In this document: piece by piece, positions 1 to 49,368 of the stretch
How the letters are laid out: each line of letters opens with the position of its first letter
Numbering within the stretch: position 1 is the stretch's first letter
DNA from: a virus
Reading direction: 5' to 3' (one strand)
DNA: 64,000 bases
Virus record (IMG/VR): IMGVR_UViG_3300047170_000049
Coordinates: 1 to 64,000 of that record
Notes under the pieces: generated by a model
Told to the model about the DNA's origin: nothing
Seen by the model: the letters and a program-made list of their open reading frames with translations, nothing else
Databases searched by the model: none
Made by a program: the position numbers and the translations under genes

Positions 1-2
1 AC

Positions 3-98
3 GATGAAGATAGATTAGGCGTTGCCGAGTTCACAACACAAGTTTTAGTTAAAATTCCAGATAAGTGTCAGCAATTGGCGAGGCTTTTATATGGATGA
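3..98 (+). CDS. 3' end of a LLYG-tail family protein (truncated by window edge)
   Basis: Manual translation DEDRLGVAEFTTQVLVKIPDKCQQLARLLYG-stop; 8-nt overlap with the ATG at 91. Confidence 0.8.
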   Translation, partial: DEDRLGVAEFTTQVLVKIPDKCQQLARLLYG

Positions 99-342
99 GC
101 CAGTAATTAATCAAGTGTACCACTGCATTCAAGATGGATGTCAAATACTCTTCAAGGTTCTTGCTGCGAATGTTAATGAAGGTAATTGGACCGTGTATGT
201 TTATCGCAATGAACTCATGTCGAAAGGCTTCATTGGTGGTGAGGTGTCAATGTATCCATATGAATGGCAACAATTGCAGGCTGGAATGAGACATATGCGA
301 CCAGAAGAAATGGTTATGATGGAGCTTCTATATGGCGAATGA
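91..342 (+). CDS. small LLYG-tail family protein
   Basis: Ends PEEMVMMELLYGE; coupled to neighbours. Confidence 0.85.
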   Translation: MDEPVINQVYHCIQDGCQILFKVLAANVNEGNWTVYVYRNELMSKGFIGGEVSMYPYEWQQLQAGMRHMRPEEMVMMELLYGE

Positions 343-574
343 TTGGTCATGGGCTGTGACAATTAAGAACATAGTGTTTATTAGCGACCCTCGTGTGAAG
401 AGTCCAATAATTCCAAGATATCAAATGGTCAAGTATCACCACAATTTAATTGGCCAAGCTGAATATAAGGGCAAGACGTTCGCATTAGGTGCCCCAGATG
501 ATTCCTTCATTCTAATGGCGTCCAGGGCTGATGCTAGGGATTTAGTCAATTTAGGGAGATTACTGTTTGAATAA
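332..574 (+). CDS. small LLYG-tail family protein
   Basis: Ends DLVNLGRLLFE; GGAG SD lies in the upstream gene's tail. Confidence 0.85.
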   Translation: MANDWSWAVTIKNIVFISDPRVKSPIIPRYQMVKYHHNLIGQAEYKGKTFALGAPDDSFILMASRADARDLVNLGRLLFE

Positions 575-803
575 GTTCATAAACGGTGATATAATAGTCC
601 AAATAGCGAATGAAGAGAATGATTATAGCTACTTCTTCCGAGTGTTGAACTTTGATGGCAAAGATTATTGGCTAAAAAGCTTCATTCACCATTATAATGG
701 TGATGAAATGAAGGCATTCCCTTCAGGGCAAAAGGGCACAGAGAACTATTGTCGTAAGGCTACGGATGAAGAAGTAGCCATGGTGGAGTTGCTTTATGAA
801 TGA
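567..803 (+). CDS. small LLYG-tail family protein, SH3/KOW-like N-terminus
   Basis: TTG start; begins KFINGDII, ends ATDEEVAMVELLYE. Confidence 0.85.
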   Translation: MNKFINGDIIVQIANEENDYSYFFRVLNFDGKDYWLKSFIHHYNGDEMKAFPSGQKGTENYCRKATDEEVAMVELLYE

Positions 804-1068
804 ATCCACTTGGACTTTAAAATATATTGGGAAGCGCATCTTGTTTAGAAAGATTAAAGAAAATATTGAAGTGTCACCTAAGAAGGTGGGTCAGAAACGC
901 ATTCTATTAGATATAGGCGATATCGTTCGTGTTATCTCTTTAACTGATTGGCGACTGGATTGCATTGTGCGTAAGAATGGTGAGTTGCATGACGTGACTC
1001 TAGATTATCATTGGACTCGTGGGCTTCGTGGTGAAGAGAAAGCCTTGGCAAAGGTGCTATATGGGTAA
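796..1068 (+). CDS. small LLYG-tail family protein
   Basis: Internal DIGDIVRV; ends GEEKALAKVLYG. Confidence 0.85.
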   Translation: MNESTWTLKYIGKRILFRKIKENIEVSPKKVGQKRILLDIGDIVRVISLTDWRLDCIVRKNGELHDVTLDYHWTRGLRGEEKALAKVLYG

Positions 1069-1291
1069 GTGGCATAAAGGCGATAAGGTTGTTTTAAGTG
1101 CTAAAGGACGAAAGTACGGTACGCTTTCTAAACACAAGGACACGATATTTGTTGTGCAAATTGAATGGTCCGATGACACCATAGATTTGACGTATGAAAA
1201 TGGAGCGCCAGCTTACGCTAACATCAAAAAAGGTTTATTCAAGCGACTTAATAAAGACATAGAACAACTGATGAGGCTCTTATATGCCTAA
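1061..1291 (+). CDS. small LLYG-tail family protein (start moved to 1061)
   Basis: Begins MGKWHKGDKVV, ends IEQLMRLLYA; 8-nt overlap start. Confidence 0.85.
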   Translation: MGKWHKGDKVVLSAKGRKYGTLSKHKDTIFVVQIEWSDDTIDLTYENGAPAYANIKKGLFKRLNKDIEQLMRLLYA

Positions 1292-1490
1292 TATTGACCA
1301 CGTTCCTAAAGTTCACTATGGCATATGGGATTTCACTCAAAGCCGTTACCGTACTATATGCCGCCATGAGCTTTACGCTAATGAGAATCTTAGAATCCAA
1401 CGCGAGTCATGGAGGCACGTCACCTGCAAGAAGTGTTTAAAAACATTGGGAAAAGAAGAATATAAGCTTTATACGTTGCTTTACGAATAA
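1284..1490 (+). CDS. LLYG-tail family protein with possible Zn-binding residues
   Basis: H, C and VTCKKC residues; ends KEEYKLYTLLYE. Confidence 0.85.
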   Translation: MPNIDHVPKVHYGIWDFTQSRYRTICRHELYANENLRIQRESWRHVTCKKCLKTLGKEEYKLYTLLYE

Positions 1491-1502
1491 GTGTGGTATT
1501 AT
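1476..1502 (+). promoter_or_regulatory. possible sigma70-type promoter inside the array
   Basis: TTGCTT-N15-TATTAT with extended TG, in the only intergenic gap of the array; spacer is short. Confidence 0.4.
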
Positions 1503-1510
1503 AAATACTT

Positions 1511-1738
1511 ATGAACGTTAAAGAGTTTCAAGATTTATTGCAAGCTAACTCGTTAGCTAGTGAGAATTGGCTAAAGCAGCAATATCAATTGATGGAAAAC
1601 GTTTCATTAATGCGCATGTTTGGTGAGACCGATGACGAGCTTCGTCGCCGTATTAATGTTGAAACACAGATGCGAACGTTAACTCCAGAACAGGCCGATA
1701 AGGTCATTGCCTTAAGGAAATTACTCTATGACTACTGA
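1511..1738 (+). CDS. LLYG-tail family protein, helical body
   Basis: GETDDELRRRI body; ends IALRKLLYDY. Confidence 0.8.
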   Translation: MNVKEFQDLLQANSLASENWLKQQYQLMENVSLMRMFGETDDELRRRINVETQMRTLTPEQADKVIALRKLLYDY

Positions 1739-1985
1739 CTTCTTTAACGGTACGATGTTCTTTGGCAGCATTCCAATGCCAAATATTAAGGGTATGGCAT
1801 CAACACTGCCTTATCCTCCTACAACCCCAGTGAAAGAGATTACATTCTTTAAAGTTGCCGAAAAGACTTTTATGTGCAGAGACAGTGCTGCACACATGAT
1901 GGCCATATTTGGCGATTACACCTATGAGGGAATTGTTCAATTAGTAGATGAAGAGCTTGAACTTTACAGGATGCTTTACGAATGA
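1728..1985 (+). CDS. small LLYG-tail family protein
   Basis: Ends DEELELYRMLYE. Confidence 0.85.
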   Translation: MTTDFFNGTMFFGSIPMPNIKGMASTLPYPPTTPVKEITFFKVAEKTFMCRDSAAHMMAIFGDYTYEGIVQLVDEELELYRMLYE

Positions 1986-2278
1986 GTGGGCCACAAGCTT
2001 ACGACGATAAGTTTGCCGTAGGCGATTACTTCGTTTACTACTCCACAAAGACCACAGAGCCTCAGTTTGTATGTGGTAAAATCACTAAGTTTGACGGTGA
2101 GCAATGGTATTTTGATTTTATTGATGCCAACGACGAATGGAAGCTCCACAACTATTTCCCAATGACTCCTGAAGTACATCGCTGGCACATACAGAGTCCA
2201 TTCTATCAAGAAGCATTCGTAGTGACCAAAGATGAAATGGAAAGATTCTCAAACCTATACAAGGTGCTCTATGCGTGA
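1982..2278 (+). CDS. LLYG-tail family protein, SH3/KOW-like N-terminus
   Basis: KFAVGDYF; ends FSNLYKVLYA. Confidence 0.85.
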   Translation: MSGPQAYDDKFAVGDYFVYYSTKTTEPQFVCGKITKFDGEQWYFDFIDANDEWKLHNYFPMTPEVHRWHIQSPFYQEAFVVTKDEMERFSNLYKVLYA

Positions 2279-2492
2279 ATGGGAAGTAGGCGACTGCTTT
2301 AAATACTTTGATGTGTTTATTTTTGTTGACCACATTGATTACGAAACTAAAGAGGTTAGGTTGACCAATGCCTTTGGTGGTTCAAGTATAGGCAAGCTTC
2401 ACGATGTTGCAGCACTTGCAGGTTACGGTCCAGAAACGTATCAGCTTTTAAGTAAAGGCGAAGCTTACCTTGCGAGGCTGTTATATGGCTAA
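2271..2492 (+). CDS. LLYG-tail family protein (start moved to 2271)
   Basis: Begins MREWEVGDCF, ends SKGEAYLARLLYG. Confidence 0.85.
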   Translation: MREWEVGDCFKYFDVFIFVDHIDYETKEVRLTNAFGGSSIGKLHDVAALAGYGPETYQLLSKGEAYLARLLYG

Positions 2493-2697
2493 GTACGCTA
2501 TAATCACTAAGCAAACGTGGGTTCACGCAGGTAGATGGATTATGCCTGGTGAAGTATTTAGAATGGTAAGATTGAAACGAGAAGGTAATAATATCCAGGG
2601 CTTAAAGATTGGCCACAACGTGTGCGCAGTTCGCAAAGAGTTTTATAAGACCTTGGATAAAAATGAGAATGAATTAGCGGAGTTACTCTATGACTGA
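2485..2697 (+). CDS. LLYG-tail family protein (start moved to 2485)
   Basis: Begins MAKYAII, ends NENELAELLYD. Confidence 0.85.
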   Translation: MAKYAIITKQTWVHAGRWIMPGEVFRMVRLKREGNNIQGLKIGHNVCAVRKEFYKTLDKNENELAELLYD

Positions 2698-3004
2698 CTT
2701 CCAGGTAGGCCAATGGGTTGTTTCTAAGAGCTTTGACGAATGGTACAACTTAGCTGCCAATATGCAGAATTTTGACCCAATAAACGCCAAAGAATGGTAT
2801 GATTTGGAATGGCCTAAAAACGTATTGAAAATAACCAAAGTAAGAGAAGCTGACCAATACGACGATGAAGGTACTGCAGCGGTATCTCCGTTCTTATATT
2901 TTGAAGGCTACGATAAGGATTGGAAGCAAGTGGGCTATTCATACCGTTGCTTTCGCCATTTAACCACGGAAGAGCAAGATTTAATGGATGTGTTGTTTGG
3001 GTAA
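2690..3004 (+). CDS. LLYG-tail family protein
   Basis: DFQVGQWVV; ends TTEEQDLMDVLFG; resembles 4169..4525. Confidence 0.85.
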   Translation: MTDFQVGQWVVSKSFDEWYNLAANMQNFDPINAKEWYDLEWPKNVLKITKVREADQYDDEGTAAVSPFLYFEGYDKDWKQVGYSYRCFRHLTTEEQDLMDVLFG

Positions 3005-3257
3005 GAAAGCGGTCCAAATGGGATTCGTTAGAATTACACAAGACTCTGAATACATCAATTCTTATAAGAAGGGGCAAATTAGTAGGCTCTACACTTCTGA
3101 AGATGATGATGGTGACCGAACCTATCACGTCATTGGTAAGTTTATTAAAATTCAAGGAAGTGGGAAGCCTTTATACCAAGGACTCCCAATACGACGCCAA
3201 GACTTTGAAGAGCTTACGGGTGACGAGTTAAAGCTAGCGGAGTTGATTTATGGTTGA
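2997..3257 (+). CDS. LLYG-tail family protein (TTG start at 2997)
   Basis: Ends TGDELKLAELIYG; 8-nt overlap start. Confidence 0.8.
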   Translation: MGKKAVQMGFVRITQDSEYINSYKKGQISRLYTSEDDDGDRTYHVIGKFIKIQGSGKPLYQGLPIRRQDFEELTGDELKLAELIYG

Positions 3258-3498
3258 GCACGTTTCATTTGGTAAATTGCCAAGCCGATATTACAAGTGC
3301 CTATTAGGTACGCATGGCTTTAACATGCTTAAAGCTTACGACTTTGACACACAAACCAATCAATACATCTTCAAGGTAATAGGAACTGGAATACGCCAGT
3401 GGCGTGATGAGTATTACACATTAGAGTCCATCTCAAGGTCAGGTTTTGATAAGATATCCTCAGAAGAGTATCACTTAGCGGAGTTGCTCTATGGGTAG
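3250..3498 (+). CDS. LLYG-tail family protein
   Basis: Ends SSEEYHLAELLYG. Confidence 0.85.
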   Translation: MVEHVSFGKLPSRYYKCLLGTHGFNMLKAYDFDTQTNQYIFKVIGTGIRQWRDEYYTLESISRSGFDKISSEEYHLAELLYG

Positions 3499-3757
3499 GA
3501 AGTTTGATATAGGTGACATTGTGACCGATGACGGTAAGTACCGCTGGGTGGTGATTACCGATAATCCATTAAAAGAAGATTTGAGCGACATTTGGGTTCT
3601 TCCTTACTCATCTAGACTAGAAACTTACGGAATGATTGGAATTTCCAATGGTAATTTTGGTGCTAAGTGGATGCACATGGCTGAGAACTTAGAACACGCA
3701 CGTTCACACCCAGGAGATAAAGCCCTTAAAGAATTAGTAGTGTTATTGTATGGATAA
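3491..3757 (+). CDS. LLYG-tail family protein
   Basis: KFDIGDIV; ends LKELVVLLYG. Confidence 0.85.
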   Translation: MGRKFDIGDIVTDDGKYRWVVITDNPLKEDLSDIWVLPYSSRLETYGMIGISNGNFGAKWMHMAENLEHARSHPGDKALKELVVLLYG

Positions 3758-3962
3758 GTACAAAGTGGGTGATATATTTAAAAGCAAGAATTCTGCCACT
3801 AAAGGGTTCTTTGTGTTGCGGTTTATTAATACACGGACGGCTAGCGTAGAGTGGGACCAGGATAGCAATGTGGGCGAAGTAATGCCTGTAAACAATTTGT
3901 TTGTTTGGTACAGGAAGCTAAATCCAGAAGAGATTATTGCCTATAACGTGCTTTATGGATGA
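3750..3962 (+). CDS. LLYG-tail family protein
   Basis: KYKVGDIF; ends PEEIIAYNVLYG. Confidence 0.85.
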   Translation: MDKYKVGDIFKSKNSATKGFFVLRFINTRTASVEWDQDSNVGEVMPVNNLFVWYRKLNPEEIIAYNVLYG

Positions 3963-4176
3963 TTTTAAAGTGGGTGATTGGATTAAACTACCACGCGGTG
4001 CTGTTGCAAAAATTCATGCGATTGAAATGCCTTACTTTTATTACACATTGGCCATGACCACTTCTTTAAATCCAAACCTAAGAAGGTCAGGTTTCAAAGA
4101 TTTATCCCATTTTTATAGGCACACGATAAAGCTCGAAGGCATTGAATTAGAAATAGCGAAGCTTCTCTATGATTGA
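3955..4176 (+). CDS. LLYG-tail family protein (start moved to 3955)
   Basis: Begins MDDFKVGDWI, ends IELEIAKLLYD. Confidence 0.85.
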   Translation: MDDFKVGDWIKLPRGAVAKIHAIEMPYFYYTLAMTTSLNPNLRRSGFKDLSHFYRHTIKLEGIELEIAKLLYD

Positions 4177-4525
4177 TTACACCGTTGGCGACTATGTTAT
4201 GCCCATTAGCTTACAAGAATGGAAAGACCTTTGCCATAAGGTTGAAGACCGCATATTTACCGATGCTGAAGAAGACAATTATTACTACGACGAATACCCT
4301 CAACACCCTGTCAAAGTTTTAAGACTTACGCCACCAAGACCCGACATAGTACCTGAAGACCCATGGCGTGAGTATTGGGAAGTTCACATTCAAATGACTA
4401 AAGAAGACGTTCATCAGGAAGATGTGTATGATGATGGCACTTACGGTTGGGACTTATTCATAGCCGATGCGTTTCGTAAGGCGACTGAAGAAGAGTTGAG
4501 ATTGTACAGGATTCTATTCCAATGA
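4169..4525 (+). CDS. LLYG-tail family protein, acidic
   Basis: DYTVGDYV; ends ATEEELRLYRILFQ. Confidence 0.85.
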   Translation: MIDYTVGDYVMPISLQEWKDLCHKVEDRIFTDAEEDNYYYDEYPQHPVKVLRLTPPRPDIVPEDPWREYWEVHIQMTKEDVHQEDVYDDGTYGWDLFIADAFRKATEEELRLYRILFQ

Positions 4526-4761
4526 AATTTCAAGAAGGTCGTTATTACAAATACACCAACGGCGACAACTACACGGCATTCTTCCAAGTTGCTGGAGATA
4601 ATACGAGGCGCTTTCGTATTAAACGATTTATGGAAATAAATCCTATTGGCATAGAATCATCAATGACTGGTCAATTCATTGAATATAATAGTCCGCTGTG
4701 GATTCACTCCATAGAAGTGGACAAGGACGAAGTAAAGCTGGCAGAGCTTTTATTCTTATGA
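4522..4761 (+). CDS. LLYG-tail family protein, last of the array
   Basis: KFQEGRYY; ends KDEVKLAELLFL. Confidence 0.85.
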   Translation: MKFQEGRYYKYTNGDNYTAFFQVAGDNTRRFRIKRFMEINPIGIESSMTGQFIEYNSPLWIHSIEVDKDEVKLAELLFL

Positions 4762-4771
4762 AAGATACTTA

Positions 4772-5233
4772 TTAAATAAGATTGAGTGACGAGCCGTTCT
4801 TCTGGGTGGATAGCTCATTTTGCATGAAAATCCCAATGAAGTTGGCCGTGAATGAAATGATGTCTTTAGCGTTCATAGACCATGAATCAGCAATGAACAT
4901 CGCTTGATAGATGGTTACGATAGAAGCACCTGATAGACGGTCAATGATTTCAATAGAAACGTATTGTTGATTGAAGTAATCACTCACACTGGATGCGTTC
5001 ATGATGTGGGCTCCATCGAGCCCACCTGAACCACGCATACGAAAGCCTGACATTGTGCCCGTGCATTGGTATGGGCCAGCTAATGCAATCTCTGCCGCAA
5101 ATGGTGAGTCAATGCCAGTGATAACCTTGGCCCCAACTGTGCGTTGATATGTGATAGACGTAGCGAAACCCACGACATTGCCGTTGATTTTAACCACTAC
5201 ACCTGCGCCTGTTTGTCTTTGTTGTAAACTCAT
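4772..5233 (-). CDS. tail-tube-like protein (tube initiator / baseplate tube paralogue)
   Basis: 153 aa beta-rich; pattern parallels the tube gene 50405..50890 (IEIIDRLSG vs IQIVDRQTG); end of baseplate operon. Confidence 0.65.
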   Translation of the reverse strand: MSLQQRQTGAGVVVKINGNVVGFATSITYQRTVGAKVITGIDSPFAAEIALAGPYQCTGTMSGFRMRGSGGLDGAHIMNASSVSDYFNQQYVSIEIIDRLSGASIVTIYQAMFIADSWSMNAKDIISFTANFIGIFMQNELSTQKNGSSLNLI

Positions 5234-5234
5234 C

Positions 5235-5492
5235 TTACTTACCTGTTAGCATGTCCAATAGATTGGACTCGTCTTCAGTTAATGCTCTAATACGACCGTC
5301 ATGTAGTCGCTTGATAAATCCCACTAGGTCTGTAGACATGGTGACCTTCACCGTCCAACTTCGCTTCATGTGGTAGAATGGGATTATCTCCACATGATTA
5401 TCTGAGTGTTGCCATACGTTTACGAGCATGTCGTATTCGGTAGACCACATGATACCAATGAACTCATTCACTGCAGTCCAGCGCTGATGCAC
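5235..5492 (-). CDS. divergent LLYG-tail family protein in the baseplate operon
   Basis: Ends LTEDESNLLDMLTGK; fills the gap between two structural genes. Confidence 0.65.
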   Translation of the reverse strand: MHQRWTAVNEFIGIMWSTEYDMLVNVWQHSDNHVEIIPFYHMKRSWTVKVTMSTDLVGFIKRLHDGRIRALTEDESNLLDMLTGK

Positions 5493-5495
5493 GGG

Positions 5496-7091
5496 TTAAC
5501 TCAAATCAGGACCGTAGTCGCCCACGATGTTGTTCATTCCAGGTCCGTTGGGATAAACGACGATGATGTTAAGAAATATGCCCGATGCCGATAAGGAGTT
5601 GATTAAGTTGATGGCTTGTTGACGGCCTTCGACTGTGCCCGTGACGTAAAATCCATAATCATCGCCATTGGTGTCAGGGATGTAGGGTTGACGTTGGAAA
5701 ATTAGAGTCATGTCAGAGCTATGGGACTTCTGAAACTTATATGATGGGTCGAGTAATATCGTACCAGATGAGGGCCTAGAGAAGTAACGAACTGGACCTT
5801 CTTGGTTTGAAGTGCCGTAATCGAATACAACGTAGTTTTCACCATCAGGGAAGATATTAGCGTTTTGCACGTTAACGATGGTGTAGACCTGACCTGCTTC
5901 AATGTTTTGGTTTAGTTGTGTGTAGGTCTCAGTAATACTGAAACCATGCTTGGGGTCGAACAAGTATGGGCCATAGTAAGGCTCAGTTGGGTCTGGAGTC
6001 ATGCCATGCAAGTGCGCTGAACCAATTAAAGTTCGCTTAACAATTTGTGTGGTAGCAGGCAAGAAACAAACAACTTCATAAGGGTTAACTTCATAGACTG
6101 AAGCGTAACGAGGCTGTTGTTGTATTACGTTGCGAATGGGCTTAAAGAACGTAACGTCTTGTGGGCTAGCTAATGTCACAGGCCCTTGAAGACTAAACGC
6201 TGGGTTTTGGATTTCAAAGAATGAATTACCAATGCTACCTGAAGTTACATCAATAATCGTATAAGAACCCTGGTTATTAGGTAAGAAGCCTGAACCAAAT
6301 AAGTTAACATAATCTCCACTCGAAATGAATTGTAAGCTAGGGTCTGGGCCACCAGTCCAAGTGAATCGAACGTTAGAGCCCACGATGCTAGAAGTAAATG
6401 TCGTGCCCACTAATTGGGTTGTAGGTCTGAGTTCAGGGAAGTCGATGTAGTTCTGGGCATTCCCACCAGTGATAGTAATGGATGACTTAGGCCCACGCGT
6501 ACCGCTAATTATTTGCACATAAGTCTTATTGACGGTCGTATCGAGGTAAGTTGTGGCTGTTAACGAGTAATCGCTATTGAATGCAGTTTGGGAAATAACG
6601 TTAGCTATCTCTAAAGCCGTGGCATTAGTGATGTCATTGAAATTGCCAGCGTTGAATGTGACAATTAATGGGACGGGGTTATTGTCCTGAAGGATTTGTA
6701 GGGTCATGCCATCTTGTAAGTGGAATGGTTCAGCTAATACGGATGTGGTATTAGCTTTGATTGCAGTCTCACCGTAGAATAGCTCTAAGATTTCAAGGAA
6801 GATGTTTGAGATGAGCTTATTGTTCGTAACGTCAACGGCAAGTTGAGCAAAGGTTGGGTCATCAATACCAACACCTGCAGGACGAGTAACGCCCATGCCT
6901 GAAGCAATACGGTCTAAGAATTGGCCTGTAGCTGTAGCTAAGAAGAGATTATCTTTGACGGCAAGGATGTTCGACTGGTTGGCATCATCGCCAGCACTAA
7001 TGGCAGCAATCACAGCATCGACGAACTTACCCTTCAATGCGGGATTGAGGAACTGACGGACTTGTTTTTCTCTTGGTGTGATATTAGCCAT
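5496..7091 (-). CDS. baseplate wedge protein (P2 gpI-like N-terminus)
   Basis: FLATATGQFLDRIASGMGVTRP motif; follows the gpJ-like gene; beta-rich. Confidence 0.7.
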   Translation of the reverse strand: MANITPREKQVRQFLNPALKGKFVDAVIAAISAGDDANQSNILAVKDNLFLATATGQFLDRIASGMGVTRPAGVGIDDPTFAQLAVDVTNNKLISNIFLEILELFYGETAIKANTTSVLAEPFHLQDGMTLQILQDNNPVPLIVTFNAGNFNDITNATALEIANVISQTAFNSDYSLTATTYLDTTVNKTYVQIISGTRGPKSSITITGGNAQNYIDFPELRPTTQLVGTTFTSSIVGSNVRFTWTGGPDPSLQFISSGDYVNLFGSGFLPNNQGSYTIIDVTSGSIGNSFFEIQNPAFSLQGPVTLASPQDVTFFKPIRNVIQQQPRYASVYEVNPYEVVCFLPATTQIVKRTLIGSAHLHGMTPDPTEPYYGPYLFDPKHGFSITETYTQLNQNIEAGQVYTIVNVQNANIFPDGENYVVFDYGTSNQEGPVRYFSRPSSGTILLDPSYKFQKSHSSDMTLIFQRQPYIPDTNGDDYGFYVTGTVEGRQQAINLINSLSASGIFLNIIVVYPNGPGMNNIVGDYGPDLS

Positions 7092-7344
7092 ATAAAATCT
7101 TGATTAACTCTGCTTCTTCGTTTTTAAGTCTGCGATAAAACAATTCAACTATGGAGTAAGCTTCTTCGGATGGTACTTCATCTTCCATGCCGACTATTGA
7201 ATAGACGTAAGCTTCACGCTGCACTTCTAGTATTTCAATAATCCACAACGGAATCATTACTTGGCGATAATCTTGAAACCCAAAGTCAAAAAAGCTTTCG
7301 TCCAGGGTTAAGTAATCGCCAACTTTGTAAAGCGGCCTACTCAT
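7084..7344 (-). CDS. LLYG-tail family protein in the baseplate operon
   Basis: LYKVGDYL; ends NEEAELIKILYG; its TAT-GGC supplies the ATG of 5496..7091. Confidence 0.85.
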   Translation of the reverse strand: MSRPLYKVGDYLTLDESFFDFGFQDYRQVMIPLWIIEILEVQREAYVYSIVGMEDEVPSEEAYSIVELFYRRLKNEEAELIKILYG

Positions 7345-7567
7345 ACAACAAAGCCACTAGCCTACGTTCATCTGAACTTAAGGGCTTGGCATTTGTTTCG
7401 AGTTCTTCTGTATCGTTAGCCGCTACTGGAGTCATATCGTAATCATCGGTTCCAACGTAGTGCCATGAATACCAAGGCGTTAGCCCACCTGAATGATATG
7501 CTTCAATGCGTATTAGTTTCTCACCGTTACGATTGAGCTTTAAGAATGTTCCAGGTGCGAATCTCAT
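7337..7567 (-). CDS. LLYG-tail family protein in the baseplate operon
   Basis: RFAPGTFL; ends SSDERRLVALLYE. Confidence 0.85.
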   Translation of the reverse strand: MRFAPGTFLKLNRNGEKLIRIEAYHSGGLTPWYSWHYVGTDDYDMTPVAANDTEELETNAKPLSSDERRLVALLYE

Positions 7568-7653
7568 CTATGTCTCGTAATCATTTTGATTCTAATGACG
7601 GTGTAGCAAATAGCCACAACACTCCAGAATCCAGCCCATGCTAAATCGTGCAT
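7564..7653 (-). CDS. 29-aa hydrophobic peptide (not in ORF track)
   Basis: MHDLAWAGFWSVVAICYTVIRIKMITRHR; TAATG overlap upstream and ATGA overlap downstream. Confidence 0.6.
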   Translation of the reverse strand: MHDLAWAGFWSVVAICYTVIRIKMITRHR

Positions 7654-10600
7654 TATGTAGCCGCCAATGAAACCACAACGTTAGTGATGGCATTTAGAAC
7701 AACTGGCTTCTCATTGGCCTTGGTAGAGATTTGTTCGTTATCAGCGTTGTATGTGGGTGAACTGATAGCCACGGCTTGAACACCGTCAACACTACCTGCA
7801 GCGGTAACCACATCACTGAACACAACTGGAGCGCCAACGCCTAGAGCATTAACATATGCTGCCACGGCTGATTGGACTCGTGATTGTAATAGGGTGAATG
7901 GCGTACCTGATTGGGTCTTAATAACAATATTCAATGTAACGAATAATGGGAGTGGAGAATCAATCTCAATGAATGAACCTGCCGCTGCCACACCAGGGAA
8001 TGATACGGTATCGGTTGGTTCGCCACGGATTACTTCGCCTACAGCATGGATTAGACCGCCGTAATACTTGTACGAGTCTTGGCCTGATTCAACTGCATTA
8101 CTGAAACCAAACTTACTAATGGCATTGATGTTTGAGCCTGCAGTTTGGTTAATCTTGGATGCTAGGTTAGCGCCATAAAGAATAACGTTTACCGTATTAG
8201 CATCGCTAGGGCTGATTGCGAGATTTTTAATCTTCTTGTATGCGTAGTATGGATTCTTTTCTAATACGAGAAATTGTTGGAAGTTAACACCTAAGTTAAC
8301 TGGGCCAACTGATACCGCTGACATTTCCACGACTACTTGGGTAGGTGAGGGGAATTGTGCGAATGTGTTGAGGTTACCTTGTACGGTGAAGCTACCTTCA
8401 TTGACTGCGCCTAGGATAGGACCAGTGATTTCAACGGTGTCACCAGGCATAACTGAATCATATGAATAAAAGCTTAGGTCTGAGTTGTTGGCTAAGGTAT
8501 AATTACCCTTAACGAAATTGGAGTTAAGGATATAGAAAGCGTTGTTACCAAATACCTTCTCGACCTTGAACACACCACGGTTTAAGCCCGTGAAGATGCC
8601 GTTCATGAGAACCCAGTCACCTTCTTGTAAGCCACCGCCTACGAAGTTAGGTTGAGTTCCAACACCAGTCCAGCTAACGCATACGAATTGGCCTTGAGCT
8701 TCAACCTTCATTTCAGTCGTGTTATTGCCTGAATGGGTGCGTTTGGTTTGGAATGAGCCTGCAGCACTAATGGTTATGGTAGCTAAATTGACTGAAGGCG
8801 TATTAGCTTGGATTTGGATGGTAGTCGATGATGTGGATTGAATGTTCTTATCTTGGGTAGCAGTGTTCTCAATCTCAATCCATTGGTTGGCATGTAAGCC
8901 ACCAACGTTATTCTTACTAATACCAAATACGGTATAGTTCGTATCGAGTTGCGCACCAGCTTGTGATACGGCAGACTCTACGGCATTAGCTGAACCACCA
9001 GATACTTCCACTGAACCACTAGAACCAAAGAGGTCTGAGTAAATCTGGATGCGGCCAGCTTTATCGCTAACGGTTATATTCCCTAAAGAACTTAGCCCAG
9101 TAACCGAGAATATGTTTAAGAACGCAGCTACTTGAGCCGCACGGGTTGGGATAAGGTAGTAGGTCTCACCAACTAGGCTATAGAGAGAAGAGCTTAATAG
9201 CGTAGGGCGTTTTAATACGAATTTATTCTGAGGGCTGATTTGCGTACCAATGTTACTAGAGCTAATCCAGTTCTCACCGTCCACTAGGTTTAAGTATGGG
9301 CTACCAGTATCGTCTTGCGTTGATGTGGTGATATTGCCCGTGCCTAACTCTAATTGGGTGGCAGTGACATAAGTGCTGAGGTTGTTGTTGATGTACGCAC
9401 CAATGAAGTTAGCCGTATTAAGTGATGGGCTAAGGGGATAGAACACGAAGTCGGTTTGGTTGTTTAACAGTACCGTACCTTCTGCCGAGCCTGCAACGTT
9501 AGTTATCTCGAAATACAAGTCCGATACTGCCGTAACAATATATGTCCCTTGGTTATTAGATACGAAGGATGATGTGGTGTTGATGTTTACGATGTCGCCC
9601 ACTTGAACGCCAGCGCCTGATACGAAGTTAGGTTGGTCACCAGCTACCCAAGAGTAACGATAAGTGTTGCCACTCGTATTAGTTACGTTCATTTGGGTAG
9701 TGTTATCCCAGTTACCACCAAGACGTTGAGGGTTGGAGGCTAAGAAGATTTGGATTTGGGTTACTTCTGATACCATTACATTGGATTGCAATGCTGATGC
9801 AGGAGTAGTTGGATAGAAGATACCTATTTGAGCATTATTGCCCGTGGGTCCATAAGAGCTATAGCTTAGGAGCATTCCATTGTTTGCACCTGCAGGGTCC
9901 ATGACTTGACGGGCCTTGAAGTAGATTTTGTAGTCTTGGAAGCTAAAGTTATTGCCGAATGAAGCAGGGTAATTAGCCGTAGGACCGTTCTCTGAGTCAT
10001 ACCCAGTGAATGTGGTCGTAGTGGGTAATGAGCTATTGGATACCGTACCATTGCGGCTTAGGGGGATGTTTAAAGACTTGTTAACTGAATCGCCATCAAG
10101 GATTACGACTAGGTTATCTTGTGAGTCGAAATCATATGGTACGCCATAAGCATATCTGTCGCCTGCAATAATGTCTCTGAGCTTTAGGTCTGGACGGATA
10201 GTTAATGCAGTTCCACTTTCTGCAGCCAATTGGGTATAGAGTTGGTTGTTTGAGCTAAATCCATCGGCAGGGTCTAAGAACTGAATGAGTTGGTTTGGAT
10301 TCTCATTAGCTGAATTATCCGTTGTTCCAGTAAAGTTGGTTGGGGGGATAGTTCCTGTACCTGTAGCCACCGTGTCGAATATAAAGTCAGGCATGGTGAA
10401 TTCAGATGTGAGTGATTCGTCATAAGCTATGTGCGATACGGTTGAAGCATCGTTATAACCTAATACGAAACCAATGATTTTACTTGAATCGTTAATACCA
10501 ACTACGGCGATACGACCTTCTGTAGGGCTAAACGTATTAGATACCAAGCGCAGAGTTGTTGCGTTGATTACTTCAGCAAACCCGCCTTGGAGTTGTGCAT

Positions 10601-38966: not shown

Positions 38967-39187
38967 GCCGTCGCATCAAGCGCGGCGACATTTTTAAACT
39001 AGCTAATGGCTTATTTTTAAAAGTGACTAAGATTAACAAGACCATAGACGGTACTTGGTACTCAGTTAAGCCGCTCTTCATCGAAGATGAGCCTTATGGT
39101 GTGTATGGAGAATACTTCTCTTCAAAACATATGAAGAAAGTGAAACTAAACCGCTTGGAGAAGCTTTTGCTTAAGTTGTTATTATGA
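38945..39187 (+). CDS. divergent LLYG-tail family protein
   Basis: IKRGDIF; ends NRLEKLLLKLLL. Confidence 0.7.
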   Translation: MGNKSKVSRRIKRGDIFKLANGLFLKVTKINKTIDGTWYSVKPLFIEDEPYGVYGEYFSSKHMKKVKLNRLEKLLLKLLL

Positions 39188-39528
39188 AAAAACCAATCGA
39201 CATAAAAATAGAGCGCGTTCTTCCCTACGATAATCACATATTAGATTCCGTACATTACTTATCCAAGACGTTGGACATAAAAGACCTGGAAGAGGCTGCG
39301 CAAGCCGCTATAGCAAACATGGGCACTCCAGACCGCTTCATCTTAGACCCTCTTACGGCCAAGGCTTACGCACAAGCGGCTGGTATTGACTGGGCTTGGC
39401 ATTCATTAAAGTGGGAAAAACTCAAAGCCAAACTCCCAGGCTTACCTGAAAACATATCCGATGAGCAAATAGATGAAATGGGCCGTGCAGAAAAGAAACT
39501 AGCGAAGATTCTGTATGGGAAGACCTAA
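39184..39528 (+). CDS. LLYG-tail family protein
   Basis: Ends RAEKKLAKILYGKT. Confidence 0.8.
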   Translation: MKKPIDIKIERVLPYDNHILDSVHYLSKTLDIKDLEEAAQAAIANMGTPDRFILDPLTAKAYAQAAGIDWAWHSLKWEKLKAKLPGLPENISDEQIDEMGRAEKKLAKILYGKT

Positions 39529-39784
39529 GAAGCCGCTGCATTTTCACATAGGCCAAATGCTGGTTTGCTGGCCAAATGGCAAGCTTAAGAACTTTCATTT
39601 AGTTAAGGTTACAGACTACCATTCTAATACGCATTACGATGTTATGGTTTTAAAAGGTTACGGCCATAAACCAGGTAAAATAGTTGCTTGGACCCGTCAA
39701 TTCGTGGAAGAAAATTTCTTTACATGCGATAGTGAAGAACAGGCGGCATTAATCGAAGAAATGGCCAAGGTGTTGTTTGCATAG
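39515..39784 (+). CDS. LLYG-tail family protein
   Basis: FHIGQML; ends LIEEMAKVLFA; ATG comes from the upstream TAT-GGG. Confidence 0.85.
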   Translation: MGRPKKPLHFHIGQMLVCWPNGKLKNFHLVKVTDYHSNTHYDVMVLKGYGHKPGKIVAWTRQFVEENFFTCDSEEQAALIEEMAKVLFA

Positions 39785-40025
39785 CCTATTTGACCCATCT
39801 CTTAGCATTGGTGATACTGTAATCGGCAGAGATGATTATTCAGTTTTTATAGGACAAATTGTTGACATACACGAACACGAATATGAGCTTCATTCACTAT
39901 ATGACTCCGACGGTAATTCTTGGCGTGAAGGAACTATAGAGCTTTCATTTAACTATCGTTTACATTTCCCACTACGCTTAGTCACGCCTGAAGAGCTAGA
40001 ATTATTTCGTCTATTGTTTAAATAA
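39777..40025 (+). CDS. LLYG-tail family protein
   Basis: TTG start; LSIGDTV; ends TPEELELFRLLFK. Confidence 0.85.
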   Translation: MHSLFDPSLSIGDTVIGRDDYSVFIGQIVDIHEHEYELHSLYDSDGNSWREGTIELSFNYRLHFPLRLVTPEELELFRLLFK

Positions 40026-41825: not shown

Positions 41826-42077
41826 ATGATTTTATTAAAGTGCATATCCGAATGCAACATCGGAAAAGAAGCTAAGAATGGGGACTGGAAGGTAGAGATG
41901 ACCTTTCACCCTGGTCAATACTATAATGCAGTTGGCCAAGGTAATACAAGTTTTAATGGCCGTTATTACGCCTTTAAAATCAAAGGTAAGGTGGTTAGGA
42001 TAATGTCAGATAACTTTGAGCCCTTAGAGGATAAGGAAGTAGCCCATTTAGCACAATTATTATTCACTGAGGATTGA
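41826..42077 (+). CDS. LLYG-tail family protein (start moved to 41826)
   Basis: FHPGQYY; ends KEVAHLAQLLFTED. Confidence 0.8.
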   Translation: MILLKCISECNIGKEAKNGDWKVEMTFHPGQYYNAVGQGNTSFNGRYYAFKIKGKVVRIMSDNFEPLEDKEVAHLAQLLFTED

Positions 42078-42128: not shown

Positions 42129-42395
42129 ATGAAAACAATCGAGATGGCTCAAAAAAACGGTGTGTACGTCCCAAATGGTACGGTAGCCAATGAAAGCCGT
42201 AACTATGGCCCCTACACCCAGTTCGCCACTCCCAAACAAACCCCTAAAAACACGAAATTAGGGATTAGTTGGTATTTAAAAGAATTTTTCAAAGGTATGC
42301 TGTTTGGCTCTTTCTTCTCCTTCCTTTTTGGTGGGATTTTTGCTGGTGGCCTAATGGTGATTCCAGTGGTTATTAACAACAAGGATAAGAAATGA
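42129..42395 (+). CDS. membrane protein
   Basis: C-terminal TM; AAGGGGG SD. Confidence 0.65.
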   Translation: MKTIEMAQKNGVYVPNGTVANESRNYGPYTQFATPKQTPKNTKLGISWYLKEFFKGMLFGSFFSFLFGGIFAGGLMVIPVVINNKDKK

Positions 42396-42634
42396 ACATT
42401 CTTGATGAACTTAAAGACAAGATTACTGAAGTGCAGACCATCACGGTGGGGACGGATGAAATTCTTGTAATAAAACTCAGACATGACGAGGTATCTCAAG
42501 AGGAAATAAATAAAGTTCATAAAGTTTTTGAAGCCAAACTTCCTAAAACAAAGGTGTTGATTTGCGATGATTTATTTCAGTTCATTAAAATCTCTAATGA
42601 CGAGTTAAAACTCATTGACCTATTGAAGGGGTGA
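42392..42634 (+). CDS. divergent LLYG-tail family protein
   Basis: Ends SNDELKLIDLLKG. Confidence 0.7.
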   Translation: MNILDELKDKITEVQTITVGTDEILVIKLRHDEVSQEEINKVHKVFEAKLPKTKVLICDDLFQFIKISNDELKLIDLLKG

Positions 42635-46565: not shown

Positions 46566-47134
46566 AAACTTGGTTCACTAGCGATACCCACTTTGGCCAC
46601 TTGAACGTCATTAATTATTGCAAACGCCCATTCACTGGCATTGAGCATATGAATGCAGAGATGGTGCGTCTTTGGAATGAGACTGTGGCTCCTGAAGATA
46701 CCGTTTACTTTCTGGGTGATTTTTCACTGGGCAAACAAGCGGTGGTAGAGATTTTACCTAAGCTCAATGGCATAAAACACTTGATTGCGGGTAACCACGA
46801 CCGTTGTCACCCAGCACACGCCAAGAAAGAAGCTAAGATTGCAGCTATGACCCAGTGGTACTTGGAAATGGGCTTTGCGACCGTTCAATTGGAACTTAAG
46901 ATTAATATTGCAGGCCACTCAGTGAAACTTCACCACATGCCCTATAGCGGTGACCATACGGAGATGGAACGCTATGGTAAGTACCGTCCTAAGAATGAAG
47001 GCGACTGGCTTCTTTGCGGTCACGTCCACGACCTTTTCAAGATTAAGGGTAAGCAAATTAACGTAGGCGTTGATGTTTGGGACTTTAAACCCGTAAGCTC
47101 AGAACAAATTGCAGAGATTATTAATGGAGCATAA
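46562..47134 (+). CDS. calcineurin-like metallophosphoesterase
   Basis: SDTHFGH, LGDF, GNHD, HHMP, GHVH, NVGVD. Confidence 0.9.
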   Translation: MKTWFTSDTHFGHLNVINYCKRPFTGIEHMNAEMVRLWNETVAPEDTVYFLGDFSLGKQAVVEILPKLNGIKHLIAGNHDRCHPAHAKKEAKIAAMTQWYLEMGFATVQLELKINIAGHSVKLHHMPYSGDHTEMERYGKYRPKNEGDWLLCGHVHDLFKIKGKQINVGVDVWDFKPVSSEQIAEIINGA

Positions 47135-47477
47135 AAAAGGCGATGTCTTTTGGATGCGAAGGAAATCTGCCATTGGTGGCGCGCCTAAGAATTTCATGCG
47201 CATTATCCAGCTAGACGGCAATCCAAGACTGACAAATTTAGCTCAATACGACAGTGAGTATCTTTACAACATAGTGCATTTACGGCATTACTCAAATAAT
47301 CCACATAGAGTCAAAAAGGTAGCTTCAGAACATGATTTGGATTCTTTTTGGATTAAAATGAGCGATGACGAAGCATATTTGGCAAAATTATTATTTCAAG
47401 TTTTAGACTTTAAAGAGTATGAAGAGACTTCAAGAATTAGGGCTGGTCAATTTTTAAAAAAGATAGGGGTAATATGA
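47124..47477 (+). CDS. LLYG-tail family protein with C-terminal extension
   Basis: HKKGDVF; internal SDDEAYLAKLLFQ followed by about 25 aa. Confidence 0.75.
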   Translation: MEHKKGDVFWMRRKSAIGGAPKNFMRIIQLDGNPRLTNLAQYDSEYLYNIVHLRHYSNNPHRVKKVASEHDLDSFWIKMSDDEAYLAKLLFQVLDFKEYEETSRIRAGQFLKKIGVI

Positions 47478-47710
47478 ACATTTATTTCAAATACTGGCTT
47501 CCTAAAGACGTTGATGTAGAAGTAATGGAATGGTACGGTATTCGTTTTGGTAGGCATTCAAAAAGTCACAATTATAATGCCTGGGACCTGAATATTGTCA
47601 TTCCAGGTAAAGGTGTATACGAATTAACGATAACAGATAACCATGCGAAATTTCTCAAGGAATGGGGGAAAGACTTTAAAATTGTGGTTGATTGGCAATT
47701 ATTCCCTTAA
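47474..47710 (+). CDS. hypothetical protein
   Basis: ATGA overlap. Confidence 0.65.
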   Translation: MNIYFKYWLPKDVDVEVMEWYGIRFGRHSKSHNYNAWDLNIVIPGKGVYELTITDNHAKFLKEWGKDFKIVVDWQLFP

Positions 47711-47733
47711 GTTTTAAACATAAAAACCGATAG
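47707..47733 (+). promoter_or_regulatory. sigma28-type promoter
   Basis: TTAAGTTT-N11-ACCGATAG. Confidence 0.7.
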
Positions 47734-47749
47734 AATATATAGAAAGAAG

Positions 47750-47953
47750 GTGATTATGTTAGAGTTTATAGTTAATTATCTTACAGTTGATGCGGTGGCC
47801 TCTTTGTTTGTAGGCGTTATTATCTACGCAAAAAGAAACCAAATCAAATACGCCTTACGCGCTTGGTTGGCCGTTCCTGCAGGTTGTTCACACCCTGAAG
47901 AGATTGAAGCTGATGATGAATTTATTAATGACTATGACAGTGAGGAAGAGTAA
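47750..47953 (+). CDS. small membrane protein with acidic tail
   Basis: TM followed by a D/E-rich C-terminus. Confidence 0.6.
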   Translation: MIMLEFIVNYLTVDAVASLFVGVIIYAKRNQIKYALRAWLAVPAGCSHPEEIEADDEFINDYDSEEE

Positions 47954-48097
47954 TGTGCAATTGTTCTGGACCCTGCCGATGCAGTGAAAAGAATGAAAAA
48001 TTAAAGGCAGAACTTGAAGCCTTTAAGCTAAATAACACCATTGACGAGCTTATTAAAGAATTGCAAAGCCTCAAGCTAGAGGTCAAGGAGTTGAAAC

Positions 48098-48391
48098 GTG
48101 AGCCATCAAACTAAAGGTCCATGGTTTGTAAATGCTGAAGACGGTGCGGATTTCACCGCCATATCCACTAATCCAAATGGCGATGGCAGTATAGAATTTG
48201 AAAAGGAAGTATTAGGCGCTTCCGAATGGTTGAGAGTCAAGCCTGAAGATTTGCGATTGATGGCAGCGGGGCCTGAACTTTTGGAAGCCGCGAAATTAGC
48301 ATTAGACATTGCCGTTGCTGGACAATTCCGTGTTCTTGAAAAAACTCTAAGGGCAGCTATTAAAAAGGCAGAAGGTGATGAAGGTAGGTAA
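48098..48391 (+). CDS. phage hypothetical protein (HTxGPW...AAPELLEA type)
   Basis: HQTKGPW and LMAAGPELLEA; AAGGAG SD. Confidence 0.75.
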   Translation: MSHQTKGPWFVNAEDGADFTAISTNPNGDGSIEFEKEVLGASEWLRVKPEDLRLMAAGPELLEAAKLALDIAVAGQFRVLEKTLRAAIKKAEGDEGR

Positions 48392-48527
48392 AATCATCAC
48401 CTTTACAATTTATGATGGTAGCCGAGTCCATGCCGTCATAACGAAAATACATGACAATGGCAACGTAGAGATTGCCAATGGCACTATATTGATTCTGACA
48501 GGTTCTGAAGAATTTACTTAAAAATAC

Positions 48528-48554
48528 TAAAGTTTTAAAAACAGATGCCGAATA
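48528..48554 (+). promoter_or_regulatory. sigma28-type promoter
   Basis: TAAAGTTT-N11-GCCGAATA, followed by AAGGAG and ATG 48579. Confidence 0.7.
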
Positions 48555-48578
48555 GTAGTATGTAACAAGGAGAAACAT

Positions 48579-49142
48579 ATGAAATTCAGTATCAAAGACC
48601 CAAATCGCCTGAACTACTTCCGCTGCATGGACTGTCTGTCCACGATGACTTCTTACGAAACCCCAGTAATGTGCGCTTGTGATGGTTTACTTGTACCGAT
48701 GGGTCAGGTTTACGACAAGCATTACGGTGAAGAAGTTGTGCGCCCTGCTTGTGACGGACGTTGCACCCACTCCGCTGGCCCGATTTGCACATGCAAATGT
48801 GGTGGTGCCAATCATGGTACTGGCAAATTAGTCAAAACCGTGGTAATTAATGGTGTGGTTAAAGTAACTGAAGTTGACGCAGATGCTCATAAACGTGCTC
48901 AAGAATGGCGTGAAGCTTTTAACGCTGCCCGTGACCGTTTTGAAAAACACCTGGCCGCTCCTTTCAATGAGATGGTAGCAAACCAAGGCAAGGTTAACAA
49001 TGTTCAATTTTGGACCATTCGCCGCGCCTATAGCAGTGGCAAGTTCCACTTAAGCAAAATATCTCAAATGAAAGTACACAAGGCACGCATGGAGGCAGCA
49101 AAAACTGCCTTCCCCGTTCCTTTGGAGGTTGTCAATGAGTAA
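48579..49142 (+). CDS. Cys-rich Zn-binding protein
   Basis: CMDC, CACD, CDGRCTHSAGPICTCKCGGANHG. Confidence 0.8.
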   Translation: MKFSIKDPNRLNYFRCMDCLSTMTSYETPVMCACDGLLVPMGQVYDKHYGEEVVRPACDGRCTHSAGPICTCKCGGANHGTGKLVKTVVINGVVKVTEVDADAHKRAQEWREAFNAARDRFEKHLAAPFNEMVANQGKVNNVQFWTIRRAYSSGKFHLSKISQMKVHKARMEAAKTAFPVPLEVVNE

Positions 49143-49368
49143 TGTAGCGTTTAGAAGGTCAAGAATTAATAGGGTAATTGAAAAGAAAGCTATTAGCGAA
49201 GATGTGTCAGTTAACAAGGGGGATTTGGTTCAAGTTATTAATGTAGGTAAAGGCACCATAAGATGTAAGCCTGTTAAAACCCCTGATTATGTAGTCGATT
49301 TTGAAGTTGCTGATTTAGAGCACTTAACTAAGGAAGAGAACGAATTAGCAAATTTATTGTTTGGATAA
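49135..49368 (+). CDS. LLYG-tail family protein, SH3-like
   Basis: VSVNKGDLVQVI; ends TKEENELANLLFG. Confidence 0.85.
   Translation: MSNVAFRRSRINRVIEKKAISEDVSVNKGDLVQVINVGKGTIRCKPVKTPDYVVDFEVADLEHLTKEENELANLLFG

Follow-up and report, generated by a model that had tools for sequence, protein, structure and literature searches.

The stretch of DNA considered here, called the window in what follows, comprises the first 64 kb (64,000 nucleotides) of a 159,288-bp single virus contig, the IMG/VR record IMGVR_UViG_3300047170_000049, which has a G+C content of 42%, is rated complete by CheckV and belongs to a phage whose DNA comes from moss metagenomes. Scattered over this genome, and packed in tandem at one place of it, we find a family of small proteins with very different bodies that end in the same short segment, which reads as an amphipathic helix and will be referred to as the tail. 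When the weaker cases are taken in, the family reaches about 49 members of 56-118 aa, occupying about 12 kb or some 8% of the 159-kb genome, with about 35 of them in the window. All of the 20 consecutive open reading frames (ORFs) at positions 1-4761 carry the tail, counting among them a gene that begins at contig position 159150 and has only its 3' end here; the array crosses the contig ends (156555-159288 plus 1-4761), with seven members at 156555-159157 and an eighth running from 159150 to window position 98. Another 15 tailed ORFs, one of them weak, are dispersed through the window, and three more (13955, 30117 and 38891) are marginal. An earlier note, made by reading the letters of the window, had counted 34 to 39 such proteins with a tandem array of 20 running off the left edge, and both the number and the array hold. 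The members in the window are the following, with their coordinates, strand and tail:

1 to 98, plus: array member, 3' end of the gene starting at contig 159150; N-terminus VKRGDWV, tail QQLARLLYG
91 to 342, plus: array member, 83 aa, no clear GD motif in its beta-rich body; tail PEEMVMMELLYGE
332 to 574, plus: array member, 80 aa; tail RDLVNLGRLLFE, whose TTT-G provides the TTG start of the next gene
567 to 803, plus: array member, 78 aa, N-terminus FINGDII; tail TDEEVAMVELLYE
796 to 1068, plus: array member, 90 aa, LDIGDIV internal; tail GEEKALAKVLYG
1061 to 1291, plus: array member, 76 aa, WHKGDKV; tail KDIEQLMRLLYA
1284 to 1490, plus: array member, 68 aa, Cys/His (Zn-type) body; tail KEEYKLYTLLYE, uncoupled to the next gene
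1511 to 1738, plus: array member, 75 aa, all-helical body; tail TPEQADKVIALRKLLYDY
1728 to 1985, plus: array member, 85 aa; tail DEELELYRMLYE
1982 to 2278, plus: array member, 98 aa, FAVGDYF; tail KDEMERFSNLYKVLYA
2271 to 2492, plus: array member, 73 aa, WEVGDCF; tail KGEAYLARLLYG
2485 to 2697, plus: array member, 70 aa; tail KNENELAELLYD
2690 to 3004, plus: array member, 104 aa, FQVGQWV; tail TTEEQDLMDVLFG
2997 to 3257, plus: array member, 86 aa, TTG start within the preceding tail; tail TGDELKLAELIYG
3250 to 3498, plus: array member, 82 aa; tail SSEEYHLAELLYG
3491 to 3757, plus: array member, 88 aa, FDIGDIV; tail GDKALKELVVLLYG
3750 to 3962, plus: array member, 70 aa, YKVGDIF, modelled (barrel strands and helix 59-69); tail NPEEIIAYNVLYG
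3955 to 4176, plus: array member, 73 aa, FKVGDWI; tail EGIELEIAKLLYD
4169 to 4525, plus: array member, 118 aa, YTVGDYV; tail TEEELRLYRILFQ
4522 to 4761, plus: last array member, 79 aa, FQEGRYY, without a coupled gene downstream; tail KDEVKLAELLFL
5235 to 5492, minus: dispersed member in the late structural operon; tail TEDESNLLDMLTGK, with Thr in the place of the aromatic
7084 to 7344, minus: dispersed member, 86 aa, YKVGDYL; tail KNEEAELIKILYG
7337 to 7567, minus: dispersed member, 76 aa, FAPGTFL; tail SSDERRLVALLYE
13101 to 13346, plus: dispersed member, 81 aa, FQVGDLV; tail DSEYKELGQLLYGD
13744 to 13974, plus: dispersed member, 76 aa; tail SDAESKLAEVLFG
27739 to 28044, plus: dispersed member, 101 aa; tail TEEEAHLYETLFSKE
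28046 to 28276, plus: dispersed member, 76 aa, FNAGQIV; tail SGDAKRLFYLLFR
38026 to 38373, plus: dispersed member, start uncertain; tail SLDCLPLAELLFG
39184 to 39528, plus: dispersed member, 114 aa; tail RAEKKLAKILYGKT
39515 to 39784, plus: dispersed member, 89 aa, FHIGQML; tail EEQAALIEEMAKVLFA
39777 to 40025, plus: dispersed member, 82 aa, LSIGDTV; tail TPEELELFRLLFK
41826 to 42077, plus: dispersed member, about 83 aa; tail DKEVAHLAQLLFTED
42392 to 42634, plus: weak member, 80 aa; tail SNDELKLIDLLKG, with Lys in the place of the aromatic
47109 to 47477, plus: member with an internal tail, N-terminus HKKGDVF; tail SDDEAYLAKLLFQ followed by a 25-residue extension
49135 to 49368, plus: dispersed member, 77 aa, uncoupled; tail TKEENELANLLFG

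The genome-wide search for the tail that the earlier note had proposed was carried out with a position-specific scoring matrix (PSSM) built from the 19 complete array tails and run over every stop-to-stop ORF with 40 aa or more. It retrieved 21 other C-termini scoring at least 10 bits, where 20 shuffled genomes gave 0.3 on average, and inside long proteins that score was reached by 3 of 33,059 internal windows. No tail was found on the large phage proteins (Pol III alpha, sigma and other long proteins). A simple DNA repeat was also ruled out, as the earlier note had anticipated: Tandem Repeats Finder returned nothing, the sole direct repeat is a 28-nt junction segment present in seven copies of 66-86% identity, the tails draw on all six Leu codons, and tail codons are freely synonymous.

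The composition of the tail was tabulated in the 49 members of this phage (own) and in 34 members from L138, a 39-kb contig of a close relative (relative), numbering the aromatic residue as position 0:

Position -15: hydrophobic or aromatic (65%)
Positions -14 and -13: basic (41% at -14; 24-35% at -13)
Position -12: hydrophobic, mostly Leu (76% own, 71% relative)
Position -11: Thr, Ser, Asn or Asp
Position -9: acidic (67% own, 59% relative)
Position -8: acidic (67% own, 56% relative)
Position -7: often hydrophobic (59% own, 76% relative)
Position -5: Leu (42 of 49 own)
Position -4: small or hydrophobic (90%)
Position -3: charged (74% own, 62% relative)
Position -2: Leu, Val or Ile (43 of 49 own, 33 of 34 relative)
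Position -1: Leu (48 of 49 own, 33 of 34 relative)
Position 0: Tyr or Phe (92% own, 88% relative)

Phe occupies position 0 in 18 of the 49 members, and the aromatic is followed by 0 to 25 residues, with the maximum in the member at 47109-47477. The conserved C-terminal unit extends further upstream, where a strand-like Φ-[RK]-x-Φ (Φ being a hydrophobic residue) comes before ΦTxEExxLxxLL[FY], and T/S-x-x-E is a classical helix capping box. In this regard, the motif [TS]xEExxLxxLL[YF][GEDA] advanced in the earlier note captured a real helix but only the end of a longer unit. Positions -20 to -13 are not rich in Gly, Pro, Ser or Asn, as a flexible linker of the SspB type would be, and the whole unit can be read as a final strand followed by an N-cap and an amphipathic helix of three turns, without a Gly/Pro/Ser linker. 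Two kinds of known C-terminal element were considered and set aside: a membrane-targeting helix of the MinD type, since the polar face is acidic and not basic, and recognition of the PDZ or HbYX types, since the distance to the C-terminus varies and the last residue is not hydrophobic. Such a variable distance speaks against any recognition that needs a free C-terminus; moreover, a penultimate Tyr at a free C-terminus is not found in all members, and the Tyr tracks an overlapping ATG.

This overlap reveals that the last codons of the tail are used twice. Taking as coupled those members whose downstream ORF has at least 55 aa and begins 1-14 nt ahead of the stop codon's end, 33 of the 49 are coupled, and 23 of these 33 show the same 8-nt overlap TAT-Gnn-TRA containing the ATG of the next gene; at Phe junctions, TTT-Gnn offers it a TTG start. 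Codon -3 is GAG, AAG or AGG in 24 of the 33 coupled genes and lies 7 nt before the start, like a Shine-Dalgarno (SD) sequence, and up to 28 tightly coupled genes follow each other in series. Tyr and Phe occur at 24:7 in coupled genes versus 3:11 in uncoupled ones (Fisher p=7e-4), because the tail overlaps the next gene's start codon, which governs both this choice and the final G, E, D or A. The Tyr-[GEDA] end and residue -3 thus appear to be largely explained by the initiation signal of the neighbour. L-12, T-11, E-9, E-8, L-5, L-2, L-1 and the aromatic are equally conserved in the 16 uncoupled, dispersed genes, and the Leu/Glu core must therefore respond to a constraint at the protein level.

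It could still be argued that conservation acts mainly on the nucleic acid, the junctions being points of re-initiation or recombination and the protein motif a by-product. An SD-like codon -3 and a start codon inside the tail would fit this idea, as would the recurrence of the 28-nt segment at 66-86% identity, the low-depth moss contigs that match around junctions only or show tail-to-tail joints, and the heavy turnover of gene content between relatives. However, around 15 nt suffice for coupling whereas the conservation covers about 17 codons, these codons are freely synonymous, T-11, E-9, E-8, L-5, L-2 and L-1 are kept equally in the 16 uncoupled genes, and what is conserved has the look of an N-capped amphipathic helix. 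We consider this explanation very improbable, and as a sole cause it seems largely refuted by the equal conservation of the core in uncoupled genes.

Coupling also reaches the virion genes. A late structural gene of 531 aa (5496-7091, minus strand) has its start inside the TAT-GGC-TAA of the member at 7084-7344 (positions 7084-7091) and is, judged from this overlap, translationally coupled to that family member.

The bodies that precede the tail are far less uniform. An all-against-all phmmer comparison of the bodies related only two pairs, which in part bears out the description of them in the earlier note as unalignable; yet 29 of the 49 members share an N-terminal strand of the type [FWYLIV]x.G[DEQ]x[VILFYW], a pattern seen in 4 of 284 other ORFs and expected 1.2 times from shuffles, and several additional members have the GD motif further into the sequence. 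In an alignment of 25 members, the N- and C-terminal blocks are conserved and the middles are gapped and variable. An AlphaFold2 (AF2) model of the member at 3750-3962, computed with this 25-paralogue alignment (pLDDT 75), places strands at residues 9-12, 22-27, 32-35 and 54-56 and a helix at 59-69, two residues after the last strand. The fold neighbours of this model are generic SH3-like mini-barrels (DUF4222, DUF951, DUF1653, R67 DHFR, Tudor, NusG-KOW and HspQ), and many uncharacterised phage proteins have the same shape. Cluster neighbours in the ESM Atlas show TM values of 0.56-0.71, the best being DUF4222 (TM 0.71, residues 1-73), and the superpositions on PWWP, chromo, MBT and HspQ structures run from residue 1-3 through 70, helix included, with a modest Z of 3.7-4.4, the fold neighbours as a whole reaching a Z of up to 5.3. 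In this line, an exhaustive profile search among 1.84 billion representatives returned long multi-repeat proteins of SH3 type, weakly labelled by Pfam as SH3_15, KOWx, SH3_13 and HAS-barrel, that match profile positions 3-56 only, and the full-length matches (positions 1-64) were exclusively small phage proteins. At the level of named families, no recurrent Pfam family appeared among 25 members at E<=1 or among 10 array members, no recurrent PHROGs family among the members, and no member matched the hidden Markov models (HMMs) of Pfam DUF4222, DUF951 and other named small-barrel families; seen from the sequence, the 25-member alignment has no evident conserved aromatic positions in the barrel. 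Altogether with the literature searches, which gave no description of such a family, these results bear out the impression that this is not a described system.

A five-stranded SH3-like barrel with a GD-type first strand fits only the majority class of members. The model of the member at 1511-1738 has four helices and no barrel, the protein at contig 131670-131840 joins two CxxCxGxG knuckles to the tail, and the member at 1284-1490 has a Cys/His body that is 72% identical in the relative. At least three types of body therefore carry the same helix, in agreement with the beta-barrel-like, Zn-binding and helical bodies first described for the window. Two adjacent small proteins with DnaJ-type CxxCxGxG zinc knuckles (L008:3339-3674 and contig 131670-131840) are found directly after a MoxR/VWA pair, one ending in LRKLLRG and the other in LQLCDILYGSV, as zinc-finger versions of the tail family.

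A comparison with the close relative gives the tempo at which this family evolves. L138 carries 37 small genes, 34 of them tailed, in the interval from the fibre genes to the tail tube. Identity between the two phages is 85-94% for the structural proteins but 35-72% for the 17 array orthologues in synteny; a counterpart is missing for about half of the 37 array genes of L138 and for several of this phage's. Within orthologue pairs, identity is 57% in the tail, 56% at the N-terminus and 46% in the body, and synonymous sites between the two phages are saturated (pS 0.71-0.75), which leaves dN/dS uninformative. The array thus looks, from these comparisons, like a fast-evolving region of high turnover whose genes are individually maintained. 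Other moss metagenomes contain low-depth contigs that match the array only at the junctions and differ in the flanks, or that join one tail to a later tail, at window positions 113/524, 1736/1949, 2611/2689 and 4502-4540; these low-depth, thin fragments give hints of related strains with different cassettes between conserved junctions. Other carriers are few: a 1.3-kb metagenomic contig with six family members in tandem, further fragments with members, and a 21-kb contig from another sample with about 50 overlapping genes of 70-90 aa together with MoxR AAA_5 and DUF2201. No family member was present in the IMG/VR relatives found through the sheath (L004 and L005, 17-kb fragments), a scan of genome contigs with the sheath found no relative, and word-indexed protein searches with two member alignments returned almost only proteins of this phage. 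A degenerate DNA pattern of the tail gave 3 chance matches in IMG/VR and 120 in JGI metagenomes, none of them in an array.

Two loci depart from this general picture. The member at 5235-5492 shares 80% identity with the relative's orthologue, against 35-72% for the array, and may have a fixed, virion-related role. In addition, the array is broken by a 257-aa gene (contig 157636-158409; L003:4636-5409) with a lipoprotein-signal-like N-terminus (…LIGC…), and at the same place L138 (10329-11106) has two different signal-peptide or membrane genes, so that this position may be a variable secreted or exclusion cassette.

With the evidence at hand, we see about an even chance that the family is a lineage-specific, rapidly diversifying expansion of a barrel-plus-helix mini-scaffold that constitutes a library of variable binders. 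The scaffold would be an SH3-like five-stranded beta-barrel with a first strand Φx.GDxΦ, whose last strand, Φ-[RK]-x-Φ, would lead directly into the N-capped amphipathic C-terminal helix [TS]xEExxLxxLL[FY]. What looked like a tag would then be the helix of the scaffold itself, its Leu/aromatic face predicted by the model to lie against the barrel as in folds of the PWWP/chromo type, and, with so many insertions and deletions in the barrel loops, the helix would align more readily than any other part. Since most bodies have one fold, the tail need not be modular. In the arrays, the last five codons have a second use, since codon -3 resembles an SD and the following gene finds its ATG or TTG there, and with such junctions repeated the whole array can therefore be translated by coupling. 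The Zn-finger and helical members would most likely have kept helix and junction, with the body replaced upstream of the junction. Each member would be a small stable binder, exposing a hypervariable barrel surface to a different host or phage target in the take-over of the host or in counter-defence, and the helix would be the constant part of the scaffold and possibly also a common contact surface. A constant scaffold, a hypervariable surface, rapid turnover and many copies are what we would expect of a binder repertoire directed against host proteins.

Several observations weigh against this proposal. The fold is not common to all members, and the presence of the helix on helical, CxxCxGxG and Cys/His bodies suggests a role independent of capping a barrel. 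Packing of the helix on the barrel is deduced from superpositions of modest significance (Z around 4-5), and hydrophobic residues fill five of the last six positions, spreading over more than one face of the helix. Moreover, Leu -1 and Leu -5 are kept through all six codons on bodies without detectable similarity, and this conservation is stricter than usual for a buried position. As a limit of another kind, the binder function is read from the pattern of variation.

The helix could also be an element of oligomerisation, with homo- or hetero-oligomers forming through the LxxLL[FY] face and coupling providing equimolar synthesis. Oligomers are known among SH3-like mini-barrels, for instance R67 DHFR, which is one of the fold neighbours, the hydrophobic arc is broad (-5, -4, -2, -1 and 0), and up to 28 genes are coupled in series. 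Nevertheless, a helix of 12 residues is short for a stand-alone coiled coil, dispersed and uncoupled members retain the same helix, and no positive evidence was obtained. A homodimer co-fold of the member at 3750-3962 (two copies, with the 25-member alignment) scored 0.15 against a mark of 0.42, in a run without controls, and weighs on neither side of the question of binding. We consider oligomerisation decidedly unlikely.

The helix could alternatively be a shared docking or degron tag that addresses all members to one hub, which is close to what the earlier note had proposed: a library of variable modules carrying a common docking tag. The half of that idea concerning divergent modules with one common C-terminal helix stands, and the docking half is weakened, given that the bodies mostly have one fold, that there is no linker, that the helix superposes on the packed helix of PWWP/chromo structures and that the neighbour's start codon and SD largely account for the Tyr-[GEDA] end and residue -3. 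Docking would account well for a helix found on three or more body types, with Leu near-invariant across about 85 sequences from two phages whatever the body, for a core equally conserved in 16 uncoupled, dispersed genes, and for the breadth of the hydrophobic arc. The phage is also unusually rich in proteostasis genes, the MoxR/DUF2201 pair has family members on its flanks in this phage as well as in a second phage contig, and transferable C-terminal tags have precedents in the clamp-binding ends of T4 (PMC2988020) and in the degrons of LarA and HspQ (PMC10665427). Nonetheless, no hub was identified, the body passes into the helix without a flexible linker, the distance from helix to C-terminus ranges from 0 to 25 residues, the polymerase, sigma and other large phage proteins lack the tail and no phage clamp was found, most bodies share one fold, and adjacency to MoxR/VWA says little in genomes packed with family genes. 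We regard a docking tag as somewhat doubtful, and the same doubt extends to its candidate hubs, namely an AAA+ protease (host Lon/Clp, or the phage Cdc48-like AAA with ClpP), the MoxR-VWA-peptidase pair, the chaperonin or the procapsid. If it were true, the family would make up a compact natural platform in which binders of 70 aa with a 12-aa tag bring many targets to one machine. A bolder version, in which some 50 interchangeable mini-binders deliver host proteins through the ExxLxxLL[FY] helix to one machine as a universal address label, seems to us unlikely; the most attractive candidates for that machine are the phage AAA+/ClpP, the MoxR-VWA-peptidase module or the host Lon. It would amount to an evolvable library of phage adaptors by which chosen targets are degraded or sequestered, the counterpart in a bacterial virus of the F-box/PRANC families.

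The proposal of a scaffold with a repertoire of binders gives the family an interest of its own. Large phages are full of small orphan genes that offer few functional handles, and here about 8% of a genome resolves into one recognisable family, whose turnover, far above that of virion genes, is what an arms-race repertoire of binders would be expected to show. Undescribed and with only a handful of metagenomic relatives, it adds a new family of proteins together with a motif that can be searched for. The family also offers an unusually clean case of dual coding, repeated about 30 times in a row, and a caution for the reading of C-terminal 'tags' in coupled operons.

The surrounding genome is that of a phage with a contractile tail, which encodes baseplate and other virion proteins, among them:

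50911 to 53709: sheath
4772 to 5233: tail tube

Other genes encode a ribonucleotide reductase (RNR), a thymidylate kinase and a replication module with Pol III alpha, DnaB, primase and RecA. The nearest named phage is Myxococcus phage Mx1, with a sheath identity of 40%; a profile search of the whole Mx1 record gave one weak N-terminal match and did not find the tail family, and megablast of window positions 1-8000 against GenBank phages gave no match. A trypsin-like peptidase (PHROG 16701; 49523-50323, minus strand) adjoins the tube and sheath genes, as it does in an IMG/VR relative (L004:3758-4630). The set of proteostasis genes is unusually large and lies outside the window (contig 100464-102278, 122259-124278, 126424-127251 and 128880-131342). 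It includes a GroEL/Cpn60-like protein of 604 aa (100464-102278), a Cdc48/p97-like AAA of 335 aa (122259-123266) next to a ClpP-like protease (123589-124278), a subtilase of the S8 type, a DUF2201 VWA-metallopeptidase (130164-131342) paired with a MoxR AAA_5 ATPase (128880-130046), a trypsin-like peptidase and a peptide deformylase, and genes of the tail family are interspersed among them. Over the whole phage, two trypsin-like peptidases were counted.

Comparison with known systems helps to place this family. The small SH3-like barrels (DUF4222, DUF951, DUF4314, DUF1653, R67 DHFR and DsrB) are alike in their 60-110 aa, GD-type first strand and barrel, with a Z of 4.4 for DUF1653 and 3.7 for R67 DHFR against the family model in the PDB, although they are not known for an ExxLxxLL[FY] helix or for arrays of dozens per genome. 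Coupled overlapping genes are familiar from phage operons, where the stop overlaps the next start (ATGA or 8 nt) and the SD lies inside the upstream gene; what differs here is that the same overlap occurs about 30 times, embedded in a conserved protein motif whose choice of residues it sets. Royal-family and chromo-like domains (chromo, PWWP, Tudor and MBT) combine an SH3-fold barrel with a C-terminal helix (PMC5906684). Their barrel is likewise followed directly by the helix, and PWWP 2nas aligns over 69 of 70 residues, the MRG701 chromodomain over residues 3-70 and MBT over 68 residues, with Z of 3.7-4.2. This is however the level of a generic fold; the sequences do not match, nothing points to an aromatic cage, and the context is that of a bacteriophage.

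Among systems with C-terminal docking, the clamp-binding ends of T4 gp43, gp55 and gp33 are interchangeable (PMC2988020). [quoted passage not shown] Within this phage, Pol III alpha and sigma carry no such tail, and no DnaN-type clamp domain was found, although a clamp of the host might still serve. LarA and HspQ, small regulators of Lon, act through a hydrophobic C-terminal helix or degron that is transferable (PMC10665427). HspQ (YccV, SH3-like) is a weak fold neighbour of the family model (5ycq, Z 4.4, residues 1-70), although both are single host genes and not a viral family, and their degron sequences differ. The ClpX-binding tail of SspB follows a long disordered linker, and the poxvirus ankyrin/PRANC proteins, with their F-box-like domains, form families of many paralogues. 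In concept these adaptors are alike, a variable target binder with a short constant C-terminal element that docks to a degradation machine, although the linker of SspB is absent here and there is no sequence relationship. Set beside all these systems, what is known are paralogous families of small proteins in large phages, and what is new is the scale, the terminal helix shared across folds and the repeated dual-coded junction.

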